Position numbers and translations under genes: made by a program
Notes under the pieces: model-generated
Told to the model about the DNA's origin: nothing
What the model saw: only the letters and a program-made list of their open reading frames with translations
Database searches by the model: none
Part shown: positions 21,350 to 49,580 of the stretch, piece by piece
How the letters are laid out: each line of letters starts with the position of its first letter
Position numbering within the stretch: the first letter of the stretch is position 1
Origin: an uncultured Bacteroidales bacterium
Lineage (GTDB): Bacteria; Bacteroidota; Bacteroidia; Bacteroidales; Muribaculaceae
Assembly (NCBI GenBank): GCA_947039275.1
Contig: CAMQYL010000001.1
Span: 36,889-100,888 of the forward strand
DNA: 64,000 nucleotides
Direction: 5' to 3'

Positions 21350-21462
21350 AACCGTTTTTATACCCTTTAAACACTCCCTTTGGCAAATTTCTTATAATTT
21401 TGCCGTTGGCAGCGAGGATGCTGCTTTTACTTATATCCATTCTTCTTGCATTAGGAAAAGCT

Positions 21463-23742
21463 ATGAAACTTTCAACAAGTCTGTGCATCTACATTCTGTG
21501 CATATGCGTCTGCATATTCGCAGGCATCAGCATAGTGCTTGAGAAGTATGCCTCGACACGAGAGCAAGAGCAGATCCACCGTCTGACCGAACTGTTGCAG
21601 GGACAGATGATACGCAGTGTAGAAGATGACCTTCATGGTGTAGCTCAGAATACTGAACGCACAGTGCGTGAATTGGCAGCCATGCCTGTGTCAGTCAACG
21701 AAACCAATGCCGCCAAACTGATCGGCATAATGGTGGAGAGCAATCCGCTCATCAAGGGCGGAAGCATAGCCTATGTCCCTGAAAAAGCTCCCGAAAGTGA
21801 CGGAGAGTGGATGATCTATGTGCAACGCTCCCCGTCGGGGCTAACAACGCAACAATTAGGAGGCTCCGATTACAACTATACAACCCAACAATGGTTCACT
21901 GCCCCTCTCCGCACAGGAAAGGCTACATGGAGCACACCCTATATGGACACAGGCGCAGGCGACTGCCTAATGACCACCTACAGCGTGCCTGTCACGGATT
22001 CCCACGGACACATCTATGCAGTCGTCACCGCCGATGTCGCCCTATCATATCTTGAAACCGAGGCTGACCAATTACGGCCGTATAAGGCAAGCCGCTCGTT
22101 GCTGCTATCTGCTGACGGCTCGCCTCTTACGGCATCTGTCCCCTCTGACAAGCAGACCATAGAACAGCTATCAGACATCACTGAACAACTTGCTTCGCAC
22201 AACCATGCCGACGGAGAAATAACTGCTGACGGAGAGAAACTGATTGCATGCTGTTCGCGCATCGCCGGACCTGACATCATAATCGCCACGCTGACACCAT
22301 ATAAGTCAGCACTGACTGTAATGAAGCAGATAAAACTCCCCATCCTCCTTATCGTAGGGTGCGGATTCATCTTGCTGCTCATAGGTCTACGTCTGATAAT
22401 CCCTTATGTCACCCGACCGCTCAACAGGCTGAGCAATGCAGCCATCAGCATAGGTAACGGAGATTTTACCACTCCCATTCCTCCGTCTGGTCCATATGCC
22501 GATATCAGACATCTTCACGATGCCATGGCTTATATGACCAATGCCATCCAGCAACACATCACGACCATAGCGCAAAATGCCCGCAACATGCAGCGCATAG
22601 AAAGCGAACTCACAATAGCCCGCAGCATCCAGCAAGGCATGCAGCCCCGACCGCTGCCTGCCAACGGCATAATCTTCAATGGCACACAGGTCTCGGTCGC
22701 TTCTCTGCTCCAACCGGCACGTGAGGTAAGCGGAGACATGTATGACTATGTATATGCCGACGGCAGCCTGTATTTCATCATAGCTGATGTGAGCGACAAA
22801 GGAGTGCCAGCATCATTAGTGATGGCTGCGGTGCATACCCTGTTCCGTTTCACCGCCGAACGACATCAGACTCCACAGGATATACTTACCTGCATCAATC
22901 GACATATATGCGAAAGCAATCCCAAAAACATGTTTGTAACCCTTATAACAGGAGTTATAGACATCCAAAAGGGACTGTTGACCCTTGCCAACGGCGGACA
23001 TAACCCTCCGATCATATCTGATGGCAATGGCTGCCGGTATCTGGCGCTCCCCCCCGGATTGCCGGCTGGAGTAATGGATTATGTGGATTATACACAGACC
23101 TCCATCCCATTTGCCCCGGGGTCGATGATATTTTTGTACACTGACGGTTTGACTGAAGCAGAGAACAGCGACGGCATCCCATTTGGTGAAGACAAACTGC
23201 TCTCCTTTATAAAGGGCTTGCACACGTCTAAACCTGATAATGTCATCGCAAGTGTCAATGACTCAGTAACCGACTACAGTATCATGCCGCTATCTGACGA
23301 CATCACCATGATGTGCATCAGTACTACCCCCTGTATTTCTCTGTCATATGACATCAATGAGATAACACGGCTTGCTGACTTCATCGACAGGACGGCATGC
23401 ACATATGGGTGGAATGCAGAACTGACGCAGAGGGTCAATCTCATACTCGAAGAAGCTGTCAGCAATATCATCAACCACTCAGTGCCGACACACGACAAAG
23501 CCGACATAACAGTCGCTCTGACTGATCTCTGTGGCGACATCCAGATAGACATCACCGATTGCAGCCCACCGTTCAACCCTCTGGAATCGGCACCTGTAAT
23601 AGACACGAACCTGCCAGCCGAGCAACGACCTGTGGGCGGATTAGGACTCTTCCTTATAAGCCGCCTCGTGGCATCGGCAGAATATGAATACCACGACAAC
23701 AAAAATCATCTTAGCTTACACCTAAAAACATCACAGCAATGA
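21463..23742 (+). CDS. membrane sensor: Cache-like domain + HAMP + PP2C (SpoIIE-type) phosphatase fused to a C-terminal RsbW/SpoIIAB-like HATPase domain
   Basis: TM, then a Cache-like segment (..WFTAPLRTGKATWSTPYMDTGAGDCLMTTYSVPV..), a second TM, HAMP, PP2C motifs (ELTIARSIQQGM, SGDMYDY, IADVSDKGVPASL, NGGHNPP, LYTDGLTEAEN), then an HATPase N-box EEAVSNIINH and G-box GGLGLFLISRL. The start is the ATG at 21463, or the TTG at 21400. Confidence 0.8.
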   Translation: MKLSTSLCIYILCICVCIFAGISIVLEKYASTREQEQIHRLTELLQGQMIRSVEDDLHGVAQNTERTVRELAAMPVSVNETNAAKLIGIMVESNPLIKGGSIAYVPEKAPESDGEWMIYVQRSPSGLTTQQLGGSDYNYTTQQWFTAPLRTGKATWSTPYMDTGAGDCLMTTYSVPVTDSHGHIYAVVTADVALSYLETEADQLRPYKASRSLLLSADGSPLTASVPSDKQTIEQLSDITEQLASHNHADGEITADGEKLIACCSRIAGPDIIIATLTPYKSALTVMKQIKLPILLIVGCGFILLLIGLRLIIPYVTRPLNRLSNAAISIGNGDFTTPIPPSGPYADIRHLHDAMAYMTNAIQQHITTIAQNARNMQRIESELTIARSIQQGMQPRPLPANGIIFNGTQVSVASLLQPAREVSGDMYDYVYADGSLYFIIADVSDKGVPASLVMAAVHTLFRFTAERHQTPQDILTCINRHICESNPKNMFVTLITGVIDIQKGLLTLANGGHNPPIISDGNGCRYLALPPGLPAGVMDYVDYTQTSIPFAPGSMIFLYTDGLTEAENSDGIPFGEDKLLSFIKGLHTSKPDNVIASVNDSVTDYSIMPLSDDITMMCISTTPCISLSYDINEITRLADFIDRTACTYGWNAELTQRVNLILEEAVSNIINHSVPTHDKADITVALTDLCGDIQIDITDCSPPFNPLESAPVIDTNLPAEQRPVGGLGLFLISRLVASAEYEYHDNKNHLSLHLKTSQQ

Positions 23743-24044
23743 CAACAACCATCAACCAGCATGACGGAATCACAAATATAGCCATCAACGGACGACTCGA
23801 TTCGGTAACCGCACCTCAGTTTGACAGCGAGGTAGCCCACATATGCTCTACTGATAGCCGTGGGGACATTATCATAGACTGCGCAGGGATGGAATATATC
23901 AGCAGTGCCGGACTTCGCTCTTTCATCACCTTGCTTAAAAGTTCAAAAGCCGCCGGACGCTCACTGGAACTCCAAAACCTCTCTGCCTCGATACGTGCGA
24001 TATTCGACATGACTGGATTCACTTCAATATTCAACATCCGATAA
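23739..24044 (+). CDS. STAS-domain anti-sigma-factor antagonist (SpoIIAA/RsbV-like)
   Basis: 101 aa: ...INGRLDSVTAPQF...IIIDCAGMEYISSAGLRSFITLLK..., with the conserved Ser in ISSAGL at nt 23901-23906. The ATGA start/stop overlap with the upstream gene is at 23739-23742. Confidence 0.85.
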   Translation: MTTTINQHDGITNIAINGRLDSVTAPQFDSEVAHICSTDSRGDIIIDCAGMEYISSAGLRSFITLLKSSKAAGRSLELQNLSASIRAIFDMTGFTSIFNIR

Positions 24045-24052
24045 CATCCATT

Positions 24053-27000
24053 ATGACCGACAACATGACTCCCATGCCTGTGCTCACACAGTCGCAGCTC
24101 GGCATCTATATAGAAAGCCTGCGCCACGAAGGCACTCCCATATATCACACTCCTCACCTCGCGCGCATGCATGGAGTGGCAGATGCACAGCGTCTCGCCG
24201 ATGCAGTGCGCAAGGTCATAGCCGCCTACCCGAGCATGTCGGCAAGGATAGTGACCGACAGCGATGGCAACCCTACCCTGTCGGATGCCTCCGCTTCCCA
24301 CCCCCTTGAAGTCGTTCTCGTCGAAATGACCGAGGAGCAGTTGATGACAGATAAGGATTCGTTGGTAAAACCGTTTGGTTTAGAAGTCGGTGAACTGGCT
24401 CATGTATCAGTCATCCGGACCGAGCGCGGTGTCTATCTGTTCACCGATTTCCATCACACCATATTTGATGGACACTCACATAAATTGCTCCTTAAGGAAA
24501 TTGACAAGGCATACAGCGGCAGCCCCGTCACTCCAGAAGCGTTGACCATCTATGATATAGCCCGAGAAGAAGCCGATGCGAGAACATCAGCGGACTATGC
24601 TTCGGCACATGACAGCTACAAGAAGATGCTTGATGGCGCTGACACGGAGCTGGAACTACCCTCCTATGCCAATGCCGCCACTGAGGCTTACGACGAAGTG
24701 ACCATCTCGCTTGACATAGACAGCGAGGTTTACAAGACCTATTGCCATGCCCACAGTATGCCCCAGAGTGTACCTGCCACGGCAGCCATGGGTATAGTGC
24801 TTCAGGCATTTTCGCGCAAGGAAGATGTCACTTTCGCCACAATATACCATGGACGCAAAGGCGACCGCTATGACCGAAGCTTCGGCATGATGGTCAAAAC
24901 TCTGCCAGTCAGAGTAAGCATCAATCAGTCCACAACCATAGGCTCACTGCTTGATGCCACGAAGGTCAATCTGAAAACGGCGCGTGAAAACGACATATAC
25001 TCGTTTGCCGATGCCGCCTCTGAGTTCGGAGTCAGCTCAGATTTCCTGTTTGCTTTCCAAGGAGAGTTTCTCAACATGCCCCAGGTCAATGGTGGCGATG
25101 TGGAAGAAATACCTGTGAAGAAGCTATCAACAGGGTCAAAAATCACCGCAAACCTGTTAATGGAGGGGGGCAAGATGAAAATGGTGATGGAATACCGCAG
25201 CGATCTGTATTCACCTGCATTCATCACATCTATCGCGTCCACATTTGCAACGGTGCTGTCGGAGATTATGTCATCGGATACCGGTATTAATGTATTGGAA
25301 CTGCCACTGCTCACTCCGACGGAAATGAGCAGTGTCATCACGCTTGGAGAGGGAGCAACGTCTACAGCCGATCCTCAGGCAACCATACCTATGCTGTTTA
25401 AAGAAGCTGCCAGGTTACACGGCGACAACACCGCCATCGTGTACAATGGACGCCAGATGACTTACCGCGAACTCGACCGCGCAACCGATGCTCTCGCTGT
25501 CATGCTGCATGACCGATACGGAGTGACTACCGAGACCACGGTAGGTGTGCTGATTGAACGCTCAGAACTCATGGCTATATACCCGTTGGCTATAATGAAA
25601 GCGGGAGGGGCGTATATGCCTCTTGACCCACATTTTCCACAGGATCGCCTGATGTTCATGGTAGAAGATGCCGGGGTATCGCTGATACTTGCCGATGACG
25701 GTCTGGCAGATGTTACGATGCCTCAATTTGACGGCACTGTCATTTCAGCTTCAGTTATGGAGTCATTAGCCGATGCCGACCGAGAGATATGCGAAGCGCA
25801 ACCTGGAGATTCCATGGTCGTCCTCTATACTTCCGGCTCTACCGGCAAACCCAAAGGCGTCACCCTTGTGCAACACAATATAGTGAATTTCTGTGCCGCC
25901 TACACATCCATGACACAGCTCTCAGCAAGTGACCGTGTGGGCGCGTATGCCGCATTCGGGTTCGATGCCCACATGATGGATCTCTATCCTGCCCTGCTGT
26001 GCGGAGCCACGGTGCATATCTTTGACTCGGAGATGCGCCTTGACCTCACAGCAATGCACGAGTATATAGAGCGCGAGCAGATCACGGTTATGTTCATGAC
26101 CACACAGATTGCATGGCAGATGGCAACGCTGTTTGACTTCACATCGCTGCGAGTGCTCTCGGCTGGCGGTGAGAAACTGCCTCCTATCGGTCTGCTGCCC
26201 TACACATTCTACAATGTCTACGGACCCACCGAGTGCTCCGTACTGACCACTGCATACCCTGCCAGCGGTGGTACCGACGGCACAATCATCGGCAGACCGC
26301 TCATGGGCTATGAACTGCTTATCGTCGACCGCAATCTTCGCCCCGTACCACAGGGTGTGTCAGGCGAGCTGATTATCCTCGGAGACGGAGTAGGACGCGG
26401 CTACCTCAACCGCCCCGAACTCAATGCCGAGAAATTCATTACCATCAGCGGCAAAAAGGCATATCGCACCGGTGACCAGGCAAGATATATGACGGACGGC
26501 AATGTGGAATTTTTAGGCCGCATGGACGGACTTGTCAAGCTCCGTGGCTTGCGCATAGAACTTGGCGAAATCGAAGCGGTAGCTACTGCACATCCCACAG
26601 TTAAGACTTTCGTGGCATCCGTCAAGGAATTCGGAGGCATGGAGAATCTAATCGGCTACTATACCGTCAAGGATGGGCAGAACCTGACCGCTGACACACT
26701 GCGCGAATTCATGTCGCAGTCGCTCACCGAATTCATGGTGCCACAAGTCATAATGCAGCTCGAAACTATGCCGCTGACCCCTAACGGCAAGGTCGACCGC
26801 CGTGCGCTCCCTGTCCCTGAGACAGCTGTTGCTGAAATCATAGAGCCGGCATCGCCAATGGAGCAGACGATATACGACATCACGGCAGAGATACTCAAGC
26901 ACACAGATTTCGGTGTCACTACCAACCTGCTGTCGGTGGGTCTGACCTCTCTGATGGCTATGCGTCTCGTGGCATCGGTAATCAGGGATACCGGACTGAA

Positions 27001-30000
27001 ACTGACAGCCAAGACCGTCATGTCAACTCCCACGGTGCGCGAAATCGCCGCCTCCTTAGAGTCGGCGACAAGAACAGCCGACGATACCACCGCGCACAAA
27101 CGCCGCCGCTACTATCCGCTGACTGAAAACCAGCGCGGAGTCTACATTGACTGGGAAATGAACCGTGACGCGCTGCAATACAATATACCTCAGGCATACA
27201 AATTCGGACAGGGCACAGATGCCGAAGCTCTCCGCGAGGCAATCTACAAGGTGCTTGCAGCCCATCCGTCATTGAAAACCCGCATGGTCATGCGCGGTGG
27301 CGATGTGATGCAGGAACGCCGCGACGACGAACCCATTGAGATTACCATAACCGACCTTGACGAAGCTCCAACCCAGGAATTCTTACAGAGCCGCATCCGT
27401 CCGTTTGATCTGCTTAATGACTGCCTATTCCGCTGCGAGATATATCGCCACGGCGATGACGTGTACATGCTCCGCGACACCCATCATATCATCTACGACG
27501 GAGTGTCGGCGATGCTTTTCCATCAGGATATGGTCAAAGCCTATGACGGTGCCGCGCTTGAAGCTGAGACATACACCGCGCTTGACCACGCGCTTGACGA
27601 GAAAGAGCTGCTTGAGAGCGATGAAGCCGACAAAGCCGCGGAGTGGCTTGACCGACTCGTTGACGGCTCAGAACCGACCTCATATCCGCGCAGCGCCCAG
27701 CCCGACAACGACATATCTGGTGGCATGGGACGAATCAGACTCTCTCTACCGTCTGCCGACATCAAAGCTTTCTGCTCCAAAGGCGGCGTGACTGTCAGCA
27801 ACTACATGCTTAGTGCGTTTGTACAGCTCCTTCACCGACTCACTCGCGAACAGACCGTGCAGATCGTCACCGTCAACAACGGCAGAAGTGATATGCGCCT
27901 CATTGGCGACATGGGCATGTTTGTCAAGACCCTCCCTGTGGTGTCACGTTGCTCAGCTCCGACCGCAACACCGCTTGACTTCGCCCGCGACATGCAGACA
28001 CAGTTCTTGACATCGCAAGACTACGACTTCTATCCATTCACCGCATTGGTGGAACAGAAAGGTGTGCGCCCCGACATAATGTATGTGTATGAAGGTGGCA
28101 TCAATCTCGCAGGCGATGCCGATGACCGACTCAAAGCCGAGAAAATTCCGCTCTCGCTTGACACAGCCAAAGTACCGCTGACATTGCTCGTGTTTGAGCC
28201 GACCGATGATGAATTTGAGCTGGCACTTGAATACGACACATCCATGTATGCCAAAGCTGACATGGAGGTTTTTGTGGAAATGATGCGCACCCTCAGTCTC
28301 ACTCTCACACAGGCACCGACCATAGCCGACGGTCTGATGGTCAATGCAGCGCAAGAGAAGCAACTCCGCACCATGCGCCATGGTGATACAGGCGAAGTGC
28401 TCTACACCTCATTCCACGGCGCAATGGAAAGCCGTGCCGATGCCACTCCCGATGCCCCGGCACTCGTGGCATGCGACAAGCGGATGTCCTACCGCGACTT
28501 TGACGAGGAGTGTAACCGCATCGCCAATGCTCTGATTAAGCGCGGTGTGCGCCGTGGTGACCGCATCGTCATTCTGCTCCCGCGCCGCTCATACCTCATC
28601 ACTGCCATCTATGGCACGATGAAGGCAGGTGCTACGTATATCCCCTGCGACCCCGAATACCCGGCAGACCGCATACGCCTCATAACCGAGGACAGCGATG
28701 CGAAATTTGTCATCACGACAGCCGACAAGGTTTCTCTTTATCCCGGAAAAGCCGTTGACATTGACGAACTGCTGACCGAAACCGACACAAAACGTCCGAA
28801 TGTCGCAGTAGCACCTGAAGATATCGCCTATATGATATATACTTCCGGCTCTACCGGCAGACCAAAAGGTGTGATGATACCGCAGAGAGCCATCACCAAC
28901 TACCTCTATGGATACTATAAGATGTTCTACAAAGAGCGTCCTGACATAAAGACGCAGATGCTCCTTGTGACCATCTCGTTTGATGCCTCGCTGCTCAATC
29001 TCGGAGGTTCGCTGACATCTGGACACTGCCTGGTGCTTGCCAATGAAGACGAGTGCAAGGATGTGGTGCTGTTGTCAAAACTGATGCTCGACAATGGTGT
29101 CGACGCTACCGATATCACTCCGAGCCGTCTGGATGCGATGCTTGACCTGCCAGAATTCGGACGAGCCATAGCCCGCTGCAAGCATATCAACATCGGTGGT
29201 GAGGGTTTCCAGAACACCCTTATAGCCAAACTATGTTCGGCAGGTTTCCGTGGACGTGCTATAAACGAATACGGACCGACGGAAACCACCGTAGGCTGCA
29301 ACCAAGCCGAAGTAACTCCGTTTGAACCCATAATTGCCGGGCGACCGTTCTATAATGCAAGCGAACGAATCGTCGATGCCTGGGGGTCGGAACTGCCTGT
29401 CGGAGCCGTCGGCGAACTCTATATATTCGGTCGCGGCGTGGGTCTTGGATACAACAACCTGCCCGAAAAGACCGCACAGTCGTTCGTCGATTTCAATGGA
29501 GAGAGAGGCTATCGCACCGGCGACCTTGCCCGATGGACTCCCGAAGGGAATGTGGTCATACTCGGACGCATAGACCATCAGGTCAAGCTACGAGGTCTCC
29601 GTATAGAGCTTGGCGAAATCGAGAGCGTGGCACAGCAGTTTGATGGCATCAAAAATGCCGCTGCAGATGTGCGCGAGGTCAACAAGATTCAGCATCTCTG
29701 CCTCTACTACACTGCCACCTCGCCAATTGACAAAGCAAAATTCCGCGAGCATCTTGCATCCTCGCTTACAGAATATATGGTGCCGGACGCATACACCGAG
29801 GTGGAGGTAATGCCGCTGACACCCAACGGCAAAATCAACCGCAAAGCTCTTCCCGAACCAGAGATTGCACCCATGACACCATATGTTGAGCCAGAGGGCG
29901 AGTTAGAGAAAACGATTGCAAAGGCATTCGGCACCATCCTACGCAATGACCGCATCGGAGCCAATGACGACTTCTTCGCCATCGGTGGTACATCAATCAG

Positions 30001-31330
30001 TGCCATTAAAGTCGTGGCTGCCCTCGCTTCATCTGGTTACAGCATCACCTACAAGAACGTGTTCACCGCCCGCACTCCCCGTGCTTTGGCTGCCATGATA
30101 GAGGGCAGACCGATTGAAGAACCCATCGCAACCCCTGTAACGGCAGAAATACATGTGTCAGAATTTGCAAACGTGCTTGAACGCAACACCCTTGACGCTT
30201 TTCTCAACGGCAAGGAACAGGCTCTCGGCGATGTACTGCTGACCGGAGCCACAGGTTTCATGGGCATACATATGCTCCATGAACTGTTGACCACAACCGA
30301 CTCCCGGGTGTACTGCCTCCTGCGCCGCAAGGGAGACCTGTCAGCCGAAAGCCGTCTGCGCACGTTGCTGTTCTACTACTTTGACAATACCTTTGAGGAC
30401 GATTTCGCATCGGGACGGCTCACTGTAATCGAAGGTGACGTGACAGACCCGATTGACAGCCAACTTGCCGACAGACTGCCGGTGCAGACTGTCATCAACT
30501 GCGCCGCCAATGTCAAGCATTTCTCCGCCGGCAATGACATCGAGCAGGTCAATGTGGAGAGCGTGCGTAACCTGATCAGCTTCTGCCTTGATAAATCCGC
30601 ACGATTAGTGCATGTCTCCACCATCAGCATCGCCGGCGAGAGCGTCAACGGCTATCCCGACCCGTCATTGCTGCTGACCGAGCGCATGATGGACTTCGGA
30701 CAGAGCCTGTCAAACCAGTACGTCCATTCCAAATATGAAGCTGAACGGCTCATACTGACAGCCATCCGCGACCAGGGACTCAATGCGAAAATAATGCGTG
30801 TCGGCAATCTCTCGGCTCGTGGCACTGACGGCGAATTTCAGATCAATTTCCGCAGCAATGCCTTCATGGGCAAACTGCGAGCCTACGTGGCTCTCGGTTG
30901 CGCTCCCTATGCAGTGATGGATGCGCCATGCGAGTTCTCACCCATCGATGAAGTTTGCCATGCCATACTGCTTCTGAGCCGTACACCTGTGGAGATGTCA
31001 GTGTTCCAGCCCTGCAACAACCACCGTCTGCCGTTGGGAGATGTGTTGCATATCCTCAGCGAGGCGGGGCTGCCGGTCGCTCCTGTGGAGATGCCGCAAT
31101 TCAACGAGCGCGAACGCGAAGCCATGGATGACCCGCGTAAAGTCGATGCGCTGCAACCGCTCATGGCATACGATTCGGGAGCAGGCTCACGCACTGCCTT
31201 CATACGCTACGATTCGAGCTTCACTAACCAGATACTCTATCGTCTCGGATTCCGCTGGAATTACACTTCACGCGAATATGTCAGCCAGTTTATCCGCGCC
31301 ATCGCCTCACTCAACTACTTCGAACTATGA
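24053..31330 (+). CDS. bimodular non-ribosomal peptide synthetase, C-A-T-C-A-T-R (terminal thioester reductase)
   Basis: 2425 aa. C motifs HHTIFDG (nt 24452-24472) and HHIIYDG (about 27481). A-domain cores LYTSGSTGKPKGV (about 25821) and IYTSGSTGRPKGV (about 28836), YRTGD, KLRGLRIELGEIE and PNGK(V/I)(D/N)R(R/K)AL, each present twice. Carrier Ser sites in VGLTSLMAM and FAIGGTSISA. Reductase motifs LTGATGFMG (about 30238) and YVHSKYEAE. Confidence 0.95.
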   Translation: MTDNMTPMPVLTQSQLGIYIESLRHEGTPIYHTPHLARMHGVADAQRLADAVRKVIAAYPSMSARIVTDSDGNPTLSDASASHPLEVVLVEMTEEQLMTDKDSLVKPFGLEVGELAHVSVIRTERGVYLFTDFHHTIFDGHSHKLLLKEIDKAYSGSPVTPEALTIYDIAREEADARTSADYASAHDSYKKMLDGADTELELPSYANAATEAYDEVTISLDIDSEVYKTYCHAHSMPQSVPATAAMGIVLQAFSRKEDVTFATIYHGRKGDRYDRSFGMMVKTLPVRVSINQSTTIGSLLDATKVNLKTARENDIYSFADAASEFGVSSDFLFAFQGEFLNMPQVNGGDVEEIPVKKLSTGSKITANLLMEGGKMKMVMEYRSDLYSPAFITSIASTFATVLSEIMSSDTGINVLELPLLTPTEMSSVITLGEGATSTADPQATIPMLFKEAARLHGDNTAIVYNGRQMTYRELDRATDALAVMLHDRYGVTTETTVGVLIERSELMAIYPLAIMKAGGAYMPLDPHFPQDRLMFMVEDAGVSLILADDGLADVTMPQFDGTVISASVMESLADADREICEAQPGDSMVVLYTSGSTGKPKGVTLVQHNIVNFCAAYTSMTQLSASDRVGAYAAFGFDAHMMDLYPALLCGATVHIFDSEMRLDLTAMHEYIEREQITVMFMTTQIAWQMATLFDFTSLRVLSAGGEKLPPIGLLPYTFYNVYGPTECSVLTTAYPASGGTDGTIIGRPLMGYELLIVDRNLRPVPQGVSGELIILGDGVGRGYLNRPELNAEKFITISGKKAYRTGDQARYMTDGNVEFLGRMDGLVKLRGLRIELGEIEAVATAHPTVKTFVASVKEFGGMENLIGYYTVKDGQNLTADTLREFMSQSLTEFMVPQVIMQLETMPLTPNGKVDRRALPVPETAVAEIIEPASPMEQTIYDITAEILKHTDFGVTTNLLSVGLTSLMAMRLVASVIRDTGLKLTAKTVMSTPTVREIAASLESATRTADDTTAHKRRRYYPLTENQRGVYIDWEMNRDALQYNIPQAYKFGQGTDAEALREAIYKVLAAHPSLKTRMVMRGGDVMQERRDDEPIEITITDLDEAPTQEFLQSRIRPFDLLNDCLFRCEIYRHGDDVYMLRDTHHIIYDGVSAMLFHQDMVKAYDGAALEAETYTALDHALDEKELLESDEADKAAEWLDRLVDGSEPTSYPRSAQPDNDISGGMGRIRLSLPSADIKAFCSKGGVTVSNYMLSAFVQLLHRLTREQTVQIVTVNNGRSDMRLIGDMGMFVKTLPVVSRCSAPTATPLDFARDMQTQFLTSQDYDFYPFTALVEQKGVRPDIMYVYEGGINLAGDADDRLKAEKIPLSLDTAKVPLTLLVFEPTDDEFELALEYDTSMYAKADMEVFVEMMRTLSLTLTQAPTIADGLMVNAAQEKQLRTMRHGDTGEVLYTSFHGAMESRADATPDAPALVACDKRMSYRDFDEECNRIANALIKRGVRRGDRIVILLPRRSYLITAIYGTMKAGATYIPCDPEYPADRIRLITEDSDAKFVITTADKVSLYPGKAVDIDELLTETDTKRPNVAVAPEDIAYMIYTSGSTGRPKGVMIPQRAITNYLYGYYKMFYKERPDIKTQMLLVTISFDASLLNLGGSLTSGHCLVLANEDECKDVVLLSKLMLDNGVDATDITPSRLDAMLDLPEFGRAIARCKHINIGGEGFQNTLIAKLCSAGFRGRAINEYGPTETTVGCNQAEVTPFEPIIAGRPFYNASERIVDAWGSELPVGAVGELYIFGRGVGLGYNNLPEKTAQSFVDFNGERGYRTGDLARWTPEGNVVILGRIDHQVKLRGLRIELGEIESVAQQFDGIKNAAADVREVNKIQHLCLYYTATSPIDKAKFREHLASSLTEYMVPDAYTEVEVMPLTPNGKINRKALPEPEIAPMTPYVEPEGELEKTIAKAFGTILRNDRIGANDDFFAIGGTSISAIKVVAALASSGYSITYKNVFTARTPRALAAMIEGRPIEEPIATPVTAEIHVSEFANVLERNTLDAFLNGKEQALGDVLLTGATGFMGIHMLHELLTTTDSRVYCLLRRKGDLSAESRLRTLLFYYFDNTFEDDFASGRLTVIEGDVTDPIDSQLADRLPVQTVINCAANVKHFSAGNDIEQVNVESVRNLISFCLDKSARLVHVSTISIAGESVNGYPDPSLLLTERMMDFGQSLSNQYVHSKYEAERLILTAIRDQGLNAKIMRVGNLSARGTDGEFQINFRSNAFMGKLRAYVALGCAPYAVMDAPCEFSPIDEVCHAILLLSRTPVEMSVFQPCNNHRLPLGDVLHILSEAGLPVAPVEMPQFNEREREAMDDPRKVDALQPLMAYDSGAGSRTAFIRYDSSFTNQILYRLGFRWNYTSREYVSQFIRAIASLNYFEL

Positions 31331-33066
31331 CAGCATCCTCACGCACACCATATCTCGTAGGCAAAGCTTTCCGCAGCTTTCTTCTCGCTTCGGTACTGAC
31401 TGCCGCAGCCTCGCAGGTGGGAGCGTTGATTGACGGACTGATGCTCAGCCGCTTCATCAACGAGGAGGCGATGAGTGCCATCAACATCACCTCCCCTGTC
31501 ACGCAGGCTCTCTTTGCCCTGTGCATCCTCATAGGTGTAGGAGGGTCGATGCTCGCTGGCATAGCCATCGGCAACCACCGTAAGGATGAAGCCTCAGGCA
31601 TCTTCTCTGTGGTCATAACCACGGCTGTCACGCTCGGCATAGTGCTCGGCATAGCCGGGATGGTGTTCCTCACGCCCCTGCTGCACCTGCTCTGCCCCGA
31701 TGCTTCGCTTCAAGGGTACACCTCGCAATATCTTGTCGTGATCCTCCCTGCCTCGGCTATATATATGCTGATGGTGGTGGCGCAGATGTTTGTGACCCTT
31801 GACGGCGAACCGCGACGTGTCACTGCCGCGGTGACTACCTGCATGGTGGTCAAACTGACGCTCGACTACATCTTCATAGTGTGGTGTGGTTGGGCGATGA
31901 CAGGTGCGGCTATCGCCACAGTCATCAGCTACTTAGGCTCTCTGTGTGTCCTGTTTCCACATTTCCTAAAAAAAGAGGCTCTACGATACACCTTGCCCCG
32001 TACCATACGCCAGTTGGGCCGCATTGCCTCCATGGGTCTGCCTTTCGGCATCGCCACAGTTCTGATAGCCGTGCAGATGCTCGGCAACAACCTTGTGGCA
32101 ATCAACTACCTCGGAGCCGCCGGCATAGTCACGCTGTCGATATGCATGTATCTGCTGCGATTTTCAATGATTATCCTCACGGGGACGCTTGAATCGTTTC
32201 AGCCCGTCGCTGCCATACTAAAAGGCTCCGGTGATAACCATGGCGTAGCACTTGTGCTCGGCAGAGCCTACCGGTTTCTGGCAGTCAGCCTCTCGGTGCT
32301 TGCCCTCATACTGATAATCTTCCCGGGTTGGATTGCCGACCTGTTTGGCATCGATGATGCTGCCTCGATGGCGATGCTCCATGTGGCACTCCCGGCATAT
32401 GCAGTCAATATCATACTCCAGTGTGCCGTATATCTGCTGATACCTGTCTATCAGATATACAGCCATAAAAACATGGCTCTGATTATCTCGTTCGGACAAC
32501 CGTTGATGCCCATGGTGTGCTACTGGCTGCTGTCGGCTGCCGTCGGCGCAGGATATGCCTGGATCAATCCGTGGTGGGGCTTCGCCATCGGGCAGCTCGT
32601 TGTGGTGTTGATACTCGCTCCATTTGCACTTACACGCAAAGGCGACCACAAGCCGTTTGTACTCATCCCGACCGACAATCCCGACGAACTCTTTGACATA
32701 TCAGTGACACCTGCCATCGACCGTATGGAAGATGCCATAGTAGAAGCGGACGAATGGATGCGCACACAGAGCTTACCAGAGCAGCTGCGTCTGCGCGTTG
32801 GACTGGCATGTGAGGAAAGCATCAAGAATATCATACAGCATGCCCTCGGCAAAAAGGCACAGCACTCAGCGATAGACATGCGCATAGCTCTGTCAGCCGA
32901 CAAAGTGACGGCTGTTATCCGCGATGAAGGCACCCCTTTCAACCCCGTGGAACAAGATCCTGGCACCGGGCTCGGCTTGATGCTCGTCCGCAAAACCTGC
33001 GACGACCAAAAGTACGAGTACCTCTTCCACCAAAACATCCTCACCATCGAGTGGCAGCGCAAATAA
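31327..33066 (+). CDS. MATE/MOP-family efflux transporter fused to a C-terminal RsbW-like HATPase domain
   Basis: 579 aa. About 440 aa are polytopic and MATE-like (..LMLSRFINEEAMSAINITSPV..). The last roughly 130 aa (..LACEESIKNIIQHAL..VIRDEGTPFNPVE..GTGLGLMLVRK..KYEYL..) are paralogous to the C-terminus of the 21463-23742 product. The ATGA overlap with the NRPS stop is at 31327-31330. Confidence 0.75.
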   Translation: MTASSRTPYLVGKAFRSFLLASVLTAAASQVGALIDGLMLSRFINEEAMSAINITSPVTQALFALCILIGVGGSMLAGIAIGNHRKDEASGIFSVVITTAVTLGIVLGIAGMVFLTPLLHLLCPDASLQGYTSQYLVVILPASAIYMLMVVAQMFVTLDGEPRRVTAAVTTCMVVKLTLDYIFIVWCGWAMTGAAIATVISYLGSLCVLFPHFLKKEALRYTLPRTIRQLGRIASMGLPFGIATVLIAVQMLGNNLVAINYLGAAGIVTLSICMYLLRFSMIILTGTLESFQPVAAILKGSGDNHGVALVLGRAYRFLAVSLSVLALILIIFPGWIADLFGIDDAASMAMLHVALPAYAVNIILQCAVYLLIPVYQIYSHKNMALIISFGQPLMPMVCYWLLSAAVGAGYAWINPWWGFAIGQLVVVLILAPFALTRKGDHKPFVLIPTDNPDELFDISVTPAIDRMEDAIVEADEWMRTQSLPEQLRLRVGLACEESIKNIIQHALGKKAQHSAIDMRIALSADKVTAVIRDEGTPFNPVEQDPGTGLGLMLVRKTCDDQKYEYLFHQNILTIEWQRK

Positions 33067-33085: not shown

Positions 33086-33159
33086 TGTAGGGACATGCCG
33101 TGGCATGTCCGCTGCCAACACACGCTTGATGGGCGGACATGCCACGGCATGTCCCTACA
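33086..33159. repeat. REPIN-like inverted doublet (type 1)
   Basis: TGTAGGGACATGCCGTGGCATGTCCGC ... GCGGACATGCCACGGCATGTCCCTACA, between the MATE gene and the PPTase gene. Confidence 0.85.
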
Positions 33160-33178: not shown

Positions 33179-33682
33179 ATGACGGACTACCTGATTGAGG
33201 AGATATCTGAGCCGCTGAGCCCTGGGCAACTCAGCGTCAGGGCGCGCGAGGTGCTGGGACGTCTGCTTGCCGACAGGTACGGCATCAGCCAGCTGCCTGT
33301 TATCGCCACATATCCGTCAGGCAAACCGTATTTCCCTACGCATCCGCATATCCATTTCAGTCTGTCACACTGCTCTCGGGCGGTCATTGCAGTGGTCTCG
33401 GATTCGGAGGTAGGATGTGACATTGAAGATATGCAGGCCGCAGCCGATATCACAAGCGAACTGCTGCAAGTGGCGTTTTCACTCGCAGAACAAGCTCAGA
33501 TACTCCAGTCAGCCAATCCGGCTGTGGAGATGACGCGCCTTTGGACCCGCAAAGAAGCCAATATGAAACGCACCGGGAGCATCCCCGACAACCCTGTCAA
33601 CTGGCTGTCGGAGATGCCCGGTGTGTCTACGTCTACCTGCTGCGAGGCAGCGAAAGGCTACATATATTCAATCAGTCATTGA
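33179..33682 (+). CDS. 4'-phosphopantetheinyl transferase (Sfp type)
   Basis: 167 aa from the internal ATG, with GKPYF...HFSLSHC and GCDIE motifs and ...WTRKEA.... The upstream part of the ORF-track entry is a translation of the REP palindrome. Confidence 0.85.
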   Translation: MTDYLIEEISEPLSPGQLSVRAREVLGRLLADRYGISQLPVIATYPSGKPYFPTHPHIHFSLSHCSRAVIAVVSDSEVGCDIEDMQAAADITSELLQVAFSLAEQAQILQSANPAVEMTRLWTRKEANMKRTGSIPDNPVNWLSEMPGVSTSTCCEAAKGYIYSISH

Positions 33683-34049
33683 GATGCATGACCAGCTCCT
33701 CTACCGAGATGCCGAGCATCGACATCTCGTGGCGGAGACGTGGCAGCGTGTCAGCGAAAAACTCTTCACGCAGTTGCTCACGGATTATATCCTTTGCCTC
33801 CTGAGCGACAAAGCAGCCCAGACCGCGCTTCTGATATAGGATGCCGAGAGCCTGCATGTCGTCATAGCTCTTCAATACCGTGCGAGTGTTGACCGCCATG
33901 GCAACCGACAGTTCCTTGACCGACGGCACACGTCCGTCAGTCTGCCAATCGCCTGAAAGGATGCGGCTGTAGCAGTAATCGGTAATCTGCCGATAAATCG
34001 GTTTTGATGTGTTGAAATCCACTATATCTGACGGTTTTTGATTTTCCAA
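33672..34049 (-). CDS. GntR family (YtrA-like) transcriptional regulator
   Basis: 125 aa: ..KPIYRQITDYCYSRILSGDWQTDGRVPSVKELSVAMAVNTRTVLKSYDDMQALGILYQKRGLGCFV.., a winged-HTH GntR signature with a short effector region. Confidence 0.85.
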   Translation of the reverse strand: MENQKPSDIVDFNTSKPIYRQITDYCYSRILSGDWQTDGRVPSVKELSVAMAVNTRTVLKSYDDMQALGILYQKRGLGCFVAQEAKDIIREQLREEFFADTLPRLRHEMSMLGISVEELVMHLND

Positions 34050-34849
34050 GCTGTTAATATAATCAACACTACAGCGGTCACCATCCAGCCAATCGATGAG
34101 CCAACCACAATCGGCATCATCATATCATGGACTACAGTATCAGCAATCGCTTCTGCCTCCGCGGGATCCACATCCTCATCCGCAAACTGCTCTGTCATCT
34201 TGTAAAAAATCACAAATACAGTATAGGAAATGAGGCCAATGTAGACAATAGCAGCGATTATAACATCCCAGACGATGGTTTTCAGGACGATATTATACCT
34301 GAACAAGATCACGAAAAACAGGGTGAAAAGAGCCGGCACAACGCCATTCATGTAGATATTAAGCCTTGTAGATACCAATGTTTCAAGGATGGGCGGCATA
34401 TCCTGCTCCTCAAACACCTTCATGGACATCATCATAAACTTGATATTGACCTCGCCAGGCAACAGCTCCATACTCAGCACCGGAAGAAGCATAGAGAGAA
34501 GAGGTATCACTATTACAGTATAGCCTATCACGAATATGCTCTTGGCCACCCATGAGATTGGCAGTGTGATGTCCAGAGCCCTCGAATTATAGCGTGCGAA
34601 CGACAGAGGGGCAAATATCATCATGAGGCTGACGATAAGCGCAAGTGTTAGATACAGCAATTTGAGATTATAGTGCGATGTCACTGCCAACAGCACTGCT
34701 ATGACAAACGATGCAATCGCATACCATATCACCTGCCACTTCAAGCGAGGCCAGTAATAACGGCACGCATACGCAATCTGGTTCCAAAGCCACGGCACAG
34801 GCACAGTCATAGCGGCAACAGAGTTATTGTCATTCATTTTCGGAATCAT
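34022..34849 (-). CDS. polytopic membrane protein, putative permease partner of the adjacent ABC ATPase
   Basis: 275 aa with about 6 TM helices. It overlaps both flanking genes of a YtrA-style operon. No recognisable motif. Confidence 0.55.
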   Translation of the reverse strand: MIPKMNDNNSVAAMTVPVPWLWNQIAYACRYYWPRLKWQVIWYAIASFVIAVLLAVTSHYNLKLLYLTLALIVSLMMIFAPLSFARYNSRALDITLPISWVAKSIFVIGYTVIVIPLLSMLLPVLSMELLPGEVNIKFMMMSMKVFEEQDMPPILETLVSTRLNIYMNGVVPALFTLFFVILFRYNIVLKTIVWDVIIAAIVYIGLISYTVFVIFYKMTEQFADEDVDPAEAEAIADTVVHDMMMPIVVGSSIGWMVTAVVLIILTAWKIKNRQI

Positions 34850-35681
34850 TTAACAGGTGGATTATTCGTTCACGAGCAGGACTGAAAACTGCATTGTAGA
34901 GTAAATTAAGGTCCGGCTTACCGTCGGCATCGGCATATTCGCCTGACATCTCAATGACAGCACGGTAAAGGCCAAGACGCATCTCGCTATAGAGTGCTCC
35001 AGGCAGAGGTTGCACCGAGGCAGTGAAAGCGAGGCGCGATGCCACACGCTCCATGGTCGTATTAAACAGCAACACTCCATTTGAAAGCATAGCCACACCG
35101 TCAAACAGGTTTTCCAGATCCTGCACTGTATGCGTAGACACTATGACAGTCTGATCCATGTCTATGGATGATGCCATGATATTACCGAGAGTCTGCTTAG
35201 CCTTGATGTCAAGACCGTTGGCAGGCTCGTCAAGCAGCAGAACCTCCGTACCCAATGACAGCGCATAAGCCAGCTGAGCCTTACGGCGTGTGCCAAGCGA
35301 CATCTTCATAAACGGCTGCCACTCGTCTATACCGAAAGCCTTGAGGTTGGACTTCAGGAGCTCGCCGTTAAACCGTGGATATAAAAAGGCATGACACTTC
35401 ACCATCTCTGCCATATTTTTTGCCGGGAAAGTCATGTTGTCGCCTAAGAAAAACACATCGCGCATCACTTCGGGGCGGTGGGTGGCGACATCAATGCCGT
35501 CAATCAGGCATTCACCGTACTGCGGACGCAGCAGACCCGCCATCACTTCAAGTAGAGTGGTCTTGCCCGCACCGTTCTCACCGAGAAGCAGATGTATGCC
35601 CGGAGGAAAGGAGGTCGTGACATCCTTAAGTGTCACGACTCCTTTACGGTAGGCAAAACTAAGGGTTTCAAGCTTAATCAT
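34830..35681 (-). CDS. ABC transporter ATP-binding protein
   Basis: 283 aa with Walker A GENGAGKTT, signature MSLGTRRKAQL and Walker B LLLDEP. Confidence 0.88.
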   Translation of the reverse strand: MIKLETLSFAYRKGVVTLKDVTTSFPPGIHLLLGENGAGKTTLLEVMAGLLRPQYGECLIDGIDVATHRPEVMRDVFFLGDNMTFPAKNMAEMVKCHAFLYPRFNGELLKSNLKAFGIDEWQPFMKMSLGTRRKAQLAYALSLGTEVLLLDEPANGLDIKAKQTLGNIMASSIDMDQTVIVSTHTVQDLENLFDGVAMLSNGVLLFNTTMERVASRLAFTASVQPLPGALYSEMRLGLYRAVIEMSGEYADADGKPDLNLLYNAVFSPARERIIHLLNDSENE

Positions 35682-36859: not shown

Positions 36860-36867
36860 TAACTTTG
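36860..36867 (+). promoter_or_regulatory. candidate -7 box (TAACTTTG) for regulator A
   Basis: TAnnTTTG match 61 nt upstream of the ATG. Box, spacing and flanks are conserved with 49509-49516. Confidence 0.4.
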
Positions 36868-36875
36868 TCCCTGGT

Positions 36876-36902
36876 TGTAGGGACATGCCGTGGCATGTCC
36901 GC
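36876..36902. repeat. single REP unit (type 1) in the predicted 5' leader of regulator A
   Basis: TGTAGGGACATGCCGTGGCATGTCCGC. Confidence 0.8.
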
Positions 36903-36927
36903 TTCCCAGCCCCGTCAGTCACACCCG

Positions 36928-38568
36928 ATGAAATACCTTGCTATCTTCATAATCGCAATCGCAGCGCTGTCGGTGTCGTGCGGCAGACACGCCGCCACCG
37001 AGGCAGTCATTGACCGCGCCGACTCACTGATGACTGAGCATCCCGACTCGGCTCTGACACTGCTCAGTGCCATCGACGGCTCAGCCCTGCCCCTCGGTTC
37101 GGAGCTTAACGCCCGCTATGCCCTGCTGCTGACTCAGGCACAGGCAAAGTGCTTCAAGACCCCAGCTGACGATTCGCTCATATCCATAGCTGTTGACTAT
37201 TATACACGCCACGAAGACCTGCTGCAGCTGACCAAGGCGCATTTCTATCGCGGGAGCGTGCAGTACAAAGCCAAACATTACGCCAAGAGCCTGATGTCGA
37301 TGTTTCAGGCTCTGGAGCTGGCGCGTGAAGTGGAGTCCGATTTCTGGATGGGGCTTGCGAGCCGCGGAGTCGCCGACGTGTATCTCGCCACATATAACGG
37401 AGAGGAGGGAGTGCGATACGCACAGAAAGAATACGAGCACTTCCGTCGCGACAAAACCCAGCCATACCTAAATTACGCACTCTTAGATCTCTCAAGAGCC
37501 TACAATAACTCATGTAGATACAAGGAATCCATACCTATCTGCCGACAAGTTGTTGACTCAGCCCGTAAGCATGATGACCCATATCTTGAGCATGAAGCAT
37601 GGGGAACAATGGGACGTTCACTGATGGGAGCACAAAGATATGCAGAGTCAGCCAAAGCGTTTGAAAAAGTTTGCGTGTCAGAATACGCCACTGCCGAAGA
37701 CTCATCATACCTTGCAACCATGTATGCAAAATCCGATCGCTTGGATAAAGCCATTGATTTATATCATGCAATAGGAAACCGAGACACTACCCTCCAGCTT
37801 GACTGGCTGAAATTTGAGATATATGTACGCATTGATTCTCCATATCGTGCCATAAAATCCCTTTTAAAACTTGACACCGAACATAATGACATTATAGAAA
37901 ACCGCATAAGCATCGATCTTACGACATCGCTGCTTGATTATCATACCAATCTTCGACAGGAAGCAGAGCGTTCACGCGATCTTTCATACATGTTTATCGG
38001 CGCCATGACCATAATAGGTCTGCTGATTGCCTTTATTATTTATGTGTGGATCAAGCGGTATCGGCAGCGGCAAAAGGAAAAGATAGAGCAAGGATTGGCA
38101 ATGGTACAGTCTCTGAGCGATTCGCTACAGACCAAATCATCAGAGTGCATACAAAACCGCCAGCTTATCCATACCCTGCTCCGCAAGAAATATGTCCTGT
38201 TTGACCAACTGTGCCGTCAGGTATATCCCCGACAGGACATCGAAGCTACCAACCGGCAGCTCTATCAGACCATCACGGACTTCGTAAAAGAAATCCAGGG
38301 CAATGAAACAAAAACCGATGAATTGGAGGCGATGGTCAATCAGCATATGTCGGGTCTGATGACTGATTTCAAAGCGGATGTCCCCAAAGCCAACAAGACC
38401 GATGCCAAGCTGTTCCTGTTTTCAGTCTTAGGCTTCTCAGACACAGCCATCGCCATGTTTCTCGGCAAAAAGCAGGTAAGAGCCGTCTACGATTCGCGCC
38501 GCCACCTCAAAGACAAAATCAAAGACTCCGGCTGTCCCAACCCCGACCGCTACATCCAATACCTATAG
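36928..38568 (+). CDS. membrane-spanning regulator: lipoprotein signal + TPR-like periplasmic domain + TM + coiled coil + C-terminal LuxR/GerE-like HTH (paralog A)
   Basis: MKYLAIFIIAIAALSVSCG lipobox, a helical-repeat region of about 340 aa, TM MFIGAMTIIGLLIAFIIYVWI (about 37984-38052), and C-terminal ..LFLFSVLGFSDTAIAMFLGKKQVRAVYDSRRHLKDKI... The architecture is shared with 49581-51242. Confidence 0.65.
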   Translation: MKYLAIFIIAIAALSVSCGRHAATEAVIDRADSLMTEHPDSALTLLSAIDGSALPLGSELNARYALLLTQAQAKCFKTPADDSLISIAVDYYTRHEDLLQLTKAHFYRGSVQYKAKHYAKSLMSMFQALELAREVESDFWMGLASRGVADVYLATYNGEEGVRYAQKEYEHFRRDKTQPYLNYALLDLSRAYNNSCRYKESIPICRQVVDSARKHDDPYLEHEAWGTMGRSLMGAQRYAESAKAFEKVCVSEYATAEDSSYLATMYAKSDRLDKAIDLYHAIGNRDTTLQLDWLKFEIYVRIDSPYRAIKSLLKLDTEHNDIIENRISIDLTTSLLDYHTNLRQEAERSRDLSYMFIGAMTIIGLLIAFIIYVWIKRYRQRQKEKIEQGLAMVQSLSDSLQTKSSECIQNRQLIHTLLRKKYVLFDQLCRQVYPRQDIEATNRQLYQTITDFVKEIQGNETKTDELEAMVNQHMSGLMTDFKADVPKANKTDAKLFLFSVLGFSDTAIAMFLGKKQVRAVYDSRRHLKDKIKDSGCPNPDRYIQYL

Positions 38569-41711: not shown

Positions 41712-41728
41712 TCTTAACAGTCTATATA

Positions 41729-46277: not shown

Positions 46278-46412
46278 CCCACTCCCAACAACAAAAATAT
46301 ACAAACATACCACCACATCAAACCTGAATATAGATTATAAACTGCTATAAATCACCAATATAGACCCAAAGATAATAAGAAATCGGTCTTAACAGCTTGA
46401 TTATCAGATAAA

Positions 46413-46594
46413 TACAATCTATATTTTCAAAAAGACTAAAAATAAAATTTTGCACTTTCATAACTCTCTAATTTTAAGCACATTACAAAGCGCAAAAGCC
46501 AAATGATTTTTCTCTCAATATCAGCAAGAAACGGAAAATATGCTCTAATTTTGCAGTTTGACATTAATTAATTTTCATCACATTAAATAATCCG
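46413..46594 (+). promoter_or_regulatory. repeated promoter/leader cassette, copy 2 (upstream of ABC exporter)
   Basis: TACAATCTATATTTTCAAAAAGACTAAAAATAAAATTTT, AAAGCCAAATGATTTTTC (46495-46512), -7 box TAATTTTG (46546-46553), and leader ...TTTTCATCACATTAAATAATCCGATG. Confidence 0.55.
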
Positions 46595-49551: not shown

Positions 49552-49580
49552 TTTCCCAGCCCCGACCAGTCACACTCCAG

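Follow-up and report, generated by a model that had tools for sequence, protein, structure and literature searches.

What does an RsbW-like ATPase domain do at the end of an exporter? The question is raised by a 64,000-nucleotide stretch of DNA from an uncultured Muribaculaceae bacterium (Bacteroidales; contig CAMQYL010000001.1, positions 36,889 to 100,888), referred to here as the window, in which a single gene encodes a MATE-type exporter with a C-terminal domain of the HATPase_c_2 family. Partner switching is a classic mode of sigma-factor control, and its action on enzymes has been shown only recently. Bacterial MATE pumps are, to our knowledge, regarded as constitutive and controlled only through transcription, and we know of no regulatory domain on any of them. 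The evidence assembled below, drawn from sequences and structural models, suggests that the fused domain may play the part of RsbW in a partner switch that acts on the exporter instead of on a sigma factor, and we put the probability of this whole chain at about 0.5.

The fusion is encoded by an unbroken open reading frame (ORF) at 31327..33066 on the forward strand, whose 579-amino acid (aa) product consists of the MATE part followed by the HATPase_c_2 tail. Pfam places MatE in two stretches within the first ~440 aa (65.7 bits versus a cut-off of 24.9) and HATPase_c_2 at aa 465-575 (E-value 3.5e-14, 53.3 bits versus a cut-off of 27.4). A first-pass annotation, made from the letters of this DNA, had described exactly such an exporter joined to an RsbW-like HATPase, and the continuous frame and the two above-threshold domains confirm it; the domain search that it had proposed returned HATPase_c_2, and the peptide strings that it quoted are all present in the fusion protein and in the C terminus of the 780-aa sensor phosphatase encoded upstream. 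The searchable literature also agrees with its remark that no such fusion had been described: no mention of a MATE-HATPase_c_2 protein was found in the papers searched on MATE transporters, on partner switching (including in Bacteroides) and on Muribaculaceae nonribosomal peptide synthetases (NRPSs).

The fusion gene is the fourth of five tightly packed forward-strand genes that form an operon. It is preceded by genes for the sensor phosphatase (21400..23742, 780 aa), a STAS protein (23739..24044, 101 aa; Pfam STAS, 3.5e-18) and an NRPS (24053..31330, 2425 aa), and is followed by the gene for an Sfp/AcpT-type 4'-phosphopantetheinyl transferase (PPTase; 33179..33682, Pfam ACPS). Stop and start codons overlap by 4 nt at the sensor/STAS and NRPS/MATE::HATPase junctions, and, as the first-pass annotation had stated, Pfam finds one STAS protein and two HATPase_c_2 domains, on the pump and on the sensor, encoded in this one operon. 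The NRPS has two Condensation, two AMP-binding and two PP-binding domains and a terminal thioester reductase domain (NAD_binding_4), in the order condensation-adenylation-thiolation-condensation-adenylation-thiolation-reductase (C-A-T-C-A-T-R). Gut Clostridium clusters with this domain order make N-acyl dipeptide aldehydes and pyrazinones, which are reactive protease inhibitors (PMC8518294), and by analogy this NRPS is predicted to make an (N-acyl) dipeptide aldehyde or a derived pyrazinone. The PPTase matches the AcpT and AusB-like models of NCBIfam, both below cut-off. The gap between the fusion and PPTase genes is filled by an inverted pair of a repetitive extragenic palindrome (REP)-like element (33086..33159); the PPTase start listed at 33095 runs through this palindrome and is probably wrong, and ATG 33179 (MTDYLIEE...), which fits a 173-aa orthologue in a 99%-identical assembly (L008), is likely the true start. 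Besides the operon's own genes, the 64-kb window has no further STAS, PP2C or HATPase_c_2 gene, and neither a transcription factor nor an alternative sigma factor gene was found in the operon. The one sigma gene in the window (16731-17591, reverse strand, 286 aa) looks, from its sequence, like that of a primary sigma factor. A scan of the window for sigma-70 promoters and terminators gave counts near those expected from shuffled sequence and was uninformative, since Bacteroidales promoters differ from the consensus used.

The pump-borne domain (aa 454-579; 32686..33066, forward strand) is of the RsbW/SpoIIAB type according to Pfam, AlphaFold and Foldseek. When modeled by itself, it reaches a predicted local distance difference test score (pLDDT) of 86.6, and the best Foldseek match of this model is RsbW (6m37, E-value 7.5e-08, template modeling (TM) scores 0.71/0.83). 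Other matches are RsbW 6m36, SpoIIAB (1th8, 1til and 1l0o), UsfX (8ih8) and the RsbW domain of Rv1364c (3ke6), all of which outrank histidine kinases, and in a profile comparison the domain matches RsbW over the stretch that spans the N and G1 boxes. Hence the C-terminal ~130 aa have the GHKL fold that the first-pass annotation had ascribed to them. Homologue alignments locate an N box with E496, E497, N501 and H505 (32812-32841), a G1 box D533-E-G (32923-32931) followed by an invariant F538-N539-P540, and a G2 box G548-L-G550-L (32968-32979), all on the forward strand, and a conserved tail with Y563-x-Y565 and Q569-N570; the N-box and G1 residues align with those of RsbW. Within the clade of the window's protein, E496, E497, N501, D533, F538, N539, G550, Y563, Q569 and N570 are invariant, and in a set of 79 sequences with 18-43% identity to the query, E496, E497, N501, D533, F538, P540, Y563 and N570 are invariant or at least 90% conserved, E497 being invariant throughout. 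Overall, the domain is about equally conserved as the membrane part, with mean top-residue frequencies of 0.60 and 0.67, respectively.

The membrane part (aa 1-440; 31327..32646, forward strand) has 12 transmembrane helices of the DinF/PfMATE type, as judged from Pfam MatE, AlphaFold and Foldseek. An AlphaFold model of the whole fusion, with 68 homologues as input (pLDDT 87.4, predicted TM score 0.83), places a beta-alpha-alpha-beta-beta-(loop)-alpha-beta-beta domain after twelve membrane helices. Its top Foldseek matches are PfMATE, VcmN, DinF-BH and ClbM (PfMATE 4mlb: E-value 2.7e-13, target-normalised TM score 0.84), and the best sequence match of the family profile in the PDB is DinF-BH (1.9e-31). 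The aspartate of the first transmembrane helix (DinF-BH D40, PfMATE D41) serves proton coupling in these transporters; its counterpart here, Asp36, is invariant in 68 sequences and shares a column with DinF-BH Asp40, which is Asn in the D40N entry 5c6n. On the strength of these structural and profile matches and the invariant Asp36, the membrane part looks like a working DinF-type antiporter. Between the two parts lies a cytoplasmic linker (aa 441-453; 32647..32685, forward strand) that carries, in homologue alignments, a nearly invariant P-F-x-L-I-P motif with P443, L446 and P448 at least 90% conserved, which suggests coupling of the two parts rather than passive tethering.

The other candidate components of a switch are encoded at the head of the operon. 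The sensor phosphatase consists of a transmembrane segment, a periplasmic dCache/PDC domain, a second transmembrane segment, a HAMP domain, a SpoIIE-type PP2C domain (aa 454-642) and a HATPase_c_2 domain of its own (aa 654-773), with Pfam E-values of 1.8e-46 for SpoIIE, 5.7e-25 for MCP-like_PDC_1, 8.5e-18 for HATPase_c_2 and 1.4e-06 for HAMP; its true start may be ATG 21463 (MKLSTS...). The STAS protein is of the single-domain anti-sigma-factor-antagonist type (NCBIfam ant_ant_sig, 3e-18, above cut-off) and has the motif EYISSAGLR. The motif's second serine recurs in at least 90% of the 41 unique STAS sequences from related loci; we take it to be the counterpart of the phosphorylated Ser58 of SpoIIAA (DSSGLG motif), and it is the putative phospho-acceptor. 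The HATPase tails of pump and sensor align at 30% identity (E-value 2e-13) with one 12-residue gap in the lid region. They had been called paralogous; at this level of identity they are members of the same Pfam family rather than the result of a recent duplication. In addition, the G1 box of the sensor (23305-23330, listed as aa ~636-644) reads DCSPP, whereas 18 of 19 sensor homologues have DxG there, the exception being this genome's own, and the domain is missing from the PP2C protein in 10 of 33 PP2C-bearing loci. The deviating box and these losses hint that the sensor's own HATPase_c_2 is dispensable or decaying.

Is the fusion a genuine and widespread protein? That it arose by a sequencing or assembly join of adjacent MATE and rsbW-like genes has practically no probability left. 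The window has a continuous frame here, as do L008, an independent assembly of 99% identity, and over 150 full-length homologues (from NCBI, ENA, JGI and Logan, 21-99% identity), and the junction motif is conserved. A genome scan with one genome per species yielded 59 loci, in 58 of which MATE and HATPase are fused; where a taxon is given, all are Bacteroidales, namely Muribaculaceae, Prevotella, Bacteroidaceae, Cryptobacteroides, Alistipes, Alloprevotella and the cultured Lepagella muris. The gene is split in two metagenome-assembled genomes (MAGs; L027 and L065) at different places inside the domains, as expected of MAG errors or pseudogenes, which these splits look like. A sequence search gave 157 matches, and all 120 that were listed carry PF01554 and PF13581 in ~575-585 aa, down to 38% identity; the closest named homologues among the matches listed are Muribaculaceae, and the window itself shares 99% identity with a contig of 'Bacteroidales bacterium M7'. 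When the profile of the C-terminal domain was run against 1.84 billion representatives, it gave 13,915 matches, the best 150 of which include 83 full-length MATE+HATPase proteins with 21-43% identity to the query along their whole length and 16 shorter proteins (176-427 aa) with a partial MatE before the HATPase, probably fragments of such fusions. Thus the frameshift or assembly artefact considered in the first-pass annotation does not apply, and the survey of fusions that it had proposed reveals a widespread family that reaches down to 21% identity.

The most distant members broaden the picture. One fusion, 21% identical to the query, comes from Eubacterium sp. (Firmicutes), the genus being judged from RadA on the same contig, and three MATE proteins of ~755-786 aa (P0148, P0190 and P0212) carry two tandem HATPase_c_2 domains, a pair that recalls the RsbW/SpoIIAB homodimer. 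A tblastn search against plasmids gave generic MATE matches only, with one long one on Selenomonas ruminantium pSRC2 (L152 3962-5695, WP_014430909.1). This protein (577 aa, annotated 'MATE family efflux transporter') ends in a C-terminal extension of ~130 aa without Pfam match, which aligns weakly with the N and G1 boxes of the family (hhalign probability 9.8%, N-box Asn apparently missing) and may be a degenerate relative. NCBIfam has no model dedicated to the fusion; matches there are far below cut-offs except for that of the STAS protein to the generic anti-sigma-antagonist superfamily, and NCBI names homologues of the fusion only 'ATP-binding protein'. The PF01554-PF13581 architecture must already be visible in domain databases and the sequences are not new; it is the interpretation that appears to be so.

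The genomic neighbourhoods link the fusion to the proposed partners. Within 10 kb, an NRPS is encoded in 55 of the 59 genome loci, a STAS protein in 37, a PP2C sensor in 33 and a PP2C sensor with its own HATPase domain in 23, all of these counts being lower bounds as many contigs are cut. Gene order varies: sensor-STAS-NRPS-MATE::HATPase-PPTase, as in the window, is found alongside STAS-sensor-MATE::HATPase-NRPS-PPTase, STAS-PPTase-NRPS-MATE::HATPase, MATE::HATPase-STAS-NRPS, MATE::HATPase-STAS-PP2C and PP2C-STAS-MATE::HATPase. That the neighbourhood is kept despite such rearrangement argues for functional linkage. In eight loci, no HATPase domain is present on the PP2C protein or encoded beside its gene, and the pump-borne domain is therefore the only RsbW-like partner there. 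Moreover, at one locus (L067, 23% identity), the fusion stands without an NRPS next to a divergently transcribed dCache-HAMP-SpoIIE-HATPase sensor and a STAS protein, and the sensor/STAS/MATE::HATPase triad is therefore a module of its own. In another (L071 1447-3720), a tandem-HATPase MATE lies near genes for a STAS protein, a free RsbW-like protein and a SpoIIE phosphatase.

Several further observations concern these neighbourhoods. Distant fusion clades (L144, L067 and L070) have TGT, LptF/G, Mur ligase and dUTPase as common neighbours, which suggests a conserved chromosomal copy of the fusion outside biosynthetic gene clusters in many Bacteroidales; in L067 and L070 this copy adjoins a dCache-HAMP-SpoIIE sensor. 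A 415-aa protein with an N-terminal STAS domain and an APH/ABC1-type kinase-like domain is encoded a few kb upstream of a MATE-HATPase gene (L072 1304-2551, also L073 and L074), and in L073 and L074 its gene lies between two MATE-HATPase genes. The NRPS gene is split into two ORFs at varying positions in L001/L002 (2724-3219), L015 and L027 and is whole in the near-identical L003, which suggests strain-level pseudogenisation or sequencing errors.

Which of the two HATPase domains does the STAS protein follow? As a rough test, partial Mantel tests were run on pairwise-distance matrices across loci. The raw correlation of STAS is strongest with the pump-borne HATPase (r = 0.88), followed by the MATE membrane domain (r = 0.77) and the sensor's HATPase (r = 0.70). 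When the membrane domain is controlled for, STAS still correlates with the pump-borne HATPase (r = 0.67 with p = 2e-4 for n = 24, and r = 0.46 for n = 38), and when MATE is controlled for it correlates with PP2C (r = 0.72), whereas controlling for the pump-borne HATPase leaves no correlation with the membrane domain (r = -0.06), and controlling for PP2C leaves none with the sensor's HATPase (r = -0.24, p = 1). Contacts of STAS with both PP2C and the pump-borne domain would be expected to produce such a pattern, which is suggestive only. The sensor's own HATPase was also considered as the main STAS partner and is disfavoured, given its absence from the PP2C protein in 10 of the 33 PP2C-bearing loci, its deviating G1 box in this genome and the lack of co-variation with STAS when PP2C is controlled for.

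The mechanism that we propose would run as follows. Unphosphorylated STAS would dock on the C-terminal domain of the pump and alter pump activity; with ATP, this domain would phosphorylate the STAS serine (ISSAGL) and so release STAS; and the periplasm-sensing dCache-HAMP-PP2C protein would dephosphorylate STAS-P when its ligand is present, regenerating free STAS. Export of the NRPS product would thereby be tied post-translationally to an external cue. The pump substrate is presumably that product, the predicted reactive (N-acyl) dipeptide aldehyde, and its controlled release has a rationale because the compound would be a reactive protease inhibitor. The data establish the identities and folds of the domains, the conservation of the fusion, of its ATP-site residues and of the STAS serine, the genomic linkage and the co-variation. 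STAS binding, kinase activity, the effect on transport together with its sign, and the substrate are the parts that we infer, and gating of export by such a switch, as put forward in the first-pass annotation, is plausible.

A number of observations weigh against this proposal. The distance from G1 to G2, which spans the ATP lid, is 13-19 aa in pump-borne domains versus 26-27 in sensor-borne ones; the pump-borne domain lacks the full-length lid of RsbW/SpoIIAB kinases, its lid being 8-13 residues shorter than the sensor's and some 15 residues shorter than that of B. subtilis RsbW. With such a short lid, kinase activity may be weak or absent, and a few members of the fusion family also miss the G1 glycine. 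A short lid is not unprecedented in this fold, since Rv1364c aligns gap-free to the family profile across the lid region. The genomic linkage is also uneven. A sub-clade (L052 type) resides in another NRPS cluster, with an adenylation-thiolation-thioesterase NRPS, a beta-lactamase-fold protein and a LytTR regulator, and has no STAS gene within 10 kb. A second large clade, sampled from metagenomes by a scan with a clade-2 alignment, comprises 80 loci, all fused, of which 30 have a large NRPS, 12 a PP2C and eight a STAS neighbour, and Pfam found neither STAS nor PP2C neighbours in the four of its loci that were inspected. Several second-clade loci lie in housekeeping-like contexts, such as L144, with FHA-domain, Lon, TGT and LptF/G neighbours, and L121, with TerC, DUF6056, a polysaccharide deacetylase and a glycosyltransferase. 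The Eubacterium fusion (L068/L069 7808-11764) directly follows a LytS-type histidine kinase and an OmpR-type response regulator, with no STAS nearby. Loci were annotated with profiles made from the window's proteins, which may miss distant STAS and PP2C proteins, and in second-clade genomes the partners may be encoded at other sites. In a Prevotella MAG (L058 9977-11335), STAS-NRPS-MATE is kept while the MATE protein ends at the linker (...LLLIPKN*) with no HATPase remnant downstream, and hence the domain can be lost; this is either a natural deletion of the C-terminal domain or possibly an assembly break at an 'IKELKN'-rich repeat. Finally, Mantel pairs are non-independent, and similar substitution rates can inflate the correlations.

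Other explanations have been weighed as well. The transporter may be the input of the switch rather than its output, such that the MATE cycle or substrate occupancy modulates the fused kinase or STAS-binding domain and STAS phosphorylation reports export flux elsewhere, to the sensor, the NRPS or an unlinked regulator. This arrangement, which we consider unlikely though the strongest of the alternatives, would give feedback control of biosynthesis, and BceAB-BceS is an example of a transporter-kinase pair with flux sensing. It fits the same linkage and co-variation data, it makes use of the second HATPase_c_2 domain on the sensor as a possible partner for free STAS, and the homologues beside two-component systems or LytTR regulators instead of STAS would suit a signaling role of the pump. 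However, the operon has no downstream target, transcription factor or alternative sigma gene, a dedicated periplasmic sensor is already encoded in it, and controlling for PP2C leaves no co-variation of STAS with the sensor's HATPase.

Alternatively, the fused domain may be a STAS-independent nucleotide sensor that tunes or stabilises the exporter by energy state, leaving STAS and PP2C to serve the sensor's own kinase domain. Partner choice by RsbW and SpoIIAB depends on ATP/ADP, across the family no part of the domain is better conserved than its nucleotide-binding residues, many members are without a STAS or PP2C neighbour within 10 kb, and a short lid may favour binding over catalysis. Still, STAS co-varies with the pump-borne rather than the sensor-borne domain, and the eight loci in which the pump-borne domain is the sole RsbW-like partner for STAS and PP2C also keep the STAS phospho-serine, so we rate this possibility somewhat below that of the pump as input. 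It is more improbable again that the domain is a pseudokinase, a mere membrane anchor or scaffold that holds STAS or the NRPS machinery at the exporter without any switching. The short lid, the occasional loss of the G1 glycine and the Prevotella cluster that persists without the domain would agree with a scaffold. However, a pure scaffold would have no need for the invariant N-box Glu and Asn and G1 Asp, and the PP2C phosphatase and the conserved phospho-serine imply a phosphorylation cycle.

The proposed export switch has clear relatives among known systems. Like RsbU/RsbV/RsbW and SpoIIE/SpoIIAA/SpoIIAB of Bacillus, the operon combines a PP2C phosphatase, a STAS protein with a phosphorylatable Ser and an HATPase_c_2 domain with N, G1 and G2 boxes, and RsbW and SpoIIAB are the best structural matches of the fused domain. 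Unlike these modules, it lacks a sigma factor gene, its RsbW-like domain is covalently attached to a 12-helix exporter and has a shorter lid, and its phosphatase is a membrane-bound dCache sensor with a second RsbW-like domain. The order of PP2C followed by HATPase_c_2 in this sensor is shared with the multidomain proteins HsbR, CrsR and Rv1364c, the last of which (3ke6) is also a structural and profile match to the fused domain. Nevertheless, across HsbR/HsbA, CrsR/CrsA, SypE/SypA, Rv1364c (M. tuberculosis), HenR/All4160 (Anabaena) and the system described here, the RsbW-like domain is on a transporter only in the latter, while the outputs of the HsbR/CrsR/SypE/Rv1364c/HenR-type systems are a diguanylate cyclase, a glycosyltransferase, an anti-sigma factor or a sigma factor. 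Partner switches that control enzymes or secretion, not sigma factors, are documented (PMC8256260; bioRxiv 10.64898/2026.04.08.717354).

The transporter half has parallels of its own. SLC26/SulP anion transporters carry a C-terminal cytoplasmic STAS domain that is needed for transporter function or stability (PMC8256260), and they are likewise secondary transporters with a C-terminal cytoplasmic domain from the partner-switch toolkit. The fusion is their mirror image, as STAS is the fused part there, whereas here STAS is a free protein and the putative kinase domain that would bind it is attached to the transporter; the SLC26/SulP fold is a 7+7 inverted repeat versus 6+6 in MATE. Fold, sequence family and the aspartate of the first helix (DinF-BH D40) are shared with the DinF-subfamily MATEs PfMATE, DinF-BH, ClbM and MbnM, and, as for ClbM in the colibactin island and MbnM, the gene lies in a secondary-metabolite cluster, but known DinF-subfamily MATEs stop at ~440-460 aa, shortly after the twelfth helix, with no regulatory domain. 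The NRPS domain order, the terminal reductase and the AusB/AcpT-like PPTase recall the Clostridium BGC0001686, ruminopeptin and S. aureus AusAB clusters, from which this operon differs in its Bacteroidota host and in the presence of a partner-switch module and a fused exporter.

Other features were noted across the window. The REP-like palindrome, GGACATGCC-NN-GGCATGTCC, has eight sites in the window versus 0.05 expected (480-499, 537-556, 16548-16567, 16596-16615, 33091-33110, 33135-33154, 36881-36900 and 49530-49549), often as intergenic inverted pairs 45-57 nt apart, and creates spurious ORFs with '...CRDMPWHVR...'. A copy lies at the 5' end of each of the listed ORFs 36865-38568 and 49539-51242, which encode two TPR-containing paralogues of 567 aa each (36% identical along their entire length) with a lipoprotein-like N-terminal signal and a central transmembrane segment. 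About 11 kb downstream of the NRPS operon, 44097-48820 encodes an outer-membrane beta-barrel protein (OMP_b-brl_3) followed by a C39-peptidase ABC exporter, which by its gene content looks like a bacteriocin or peptide export locus; the 739-aa ORF before the OMP_b-brl_3 gene (41591-43810) has no Pfam match. On the reverse strand, genes for a GntR-family regulator, a 275-aa multi-spanning membrane protein without Pfam match and an ABC ATPase (33672-35681) converge on the end of the NRPS operon, and the stop region of the GntR gene overlaps the 3' end of the PPTase gene.

At its broadest, the proposal describes a widespread family of MATE exporters, mostly in Bacteroidales and also in Firmicutes, that would be controlled post-translationally by a built-in RsbW-like domain, with NRPS-linked members switched on or off by a periplasmic dCache sensor phosphatase and a free STAS protein; we hold this general form tentatively, at a little under even odds. 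If true, an extracellular cue would determine, at the level of export, whether a reactive peptide aldehyde reaches the gut. This would also be the first partner switch with a secondary transporter as output, and the fused domain would be the first of regulatory function known from a bacterial MATE pump. A pump with an RsbW-like domain, in at least 100 clusters at 50% identity, would extend the partner-switch logic to membrane transport. With a wrongly set switch, attempts to express such clusters heterologously may be unsuccessful or toxic to the host, and the module could be reused as a ligand-gated export valve. As Lepagella muris NM04_E33 (L017) is a cultured carrier of the complete operon, export gating is now directly testable. 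The system would also offer a testable handle on the timing of NRPS product release in abundant but little-studied gut Bacteroidales such as Muribaculaceae and Prevotella, whose NRPS products probably act on host or competitor proteases.

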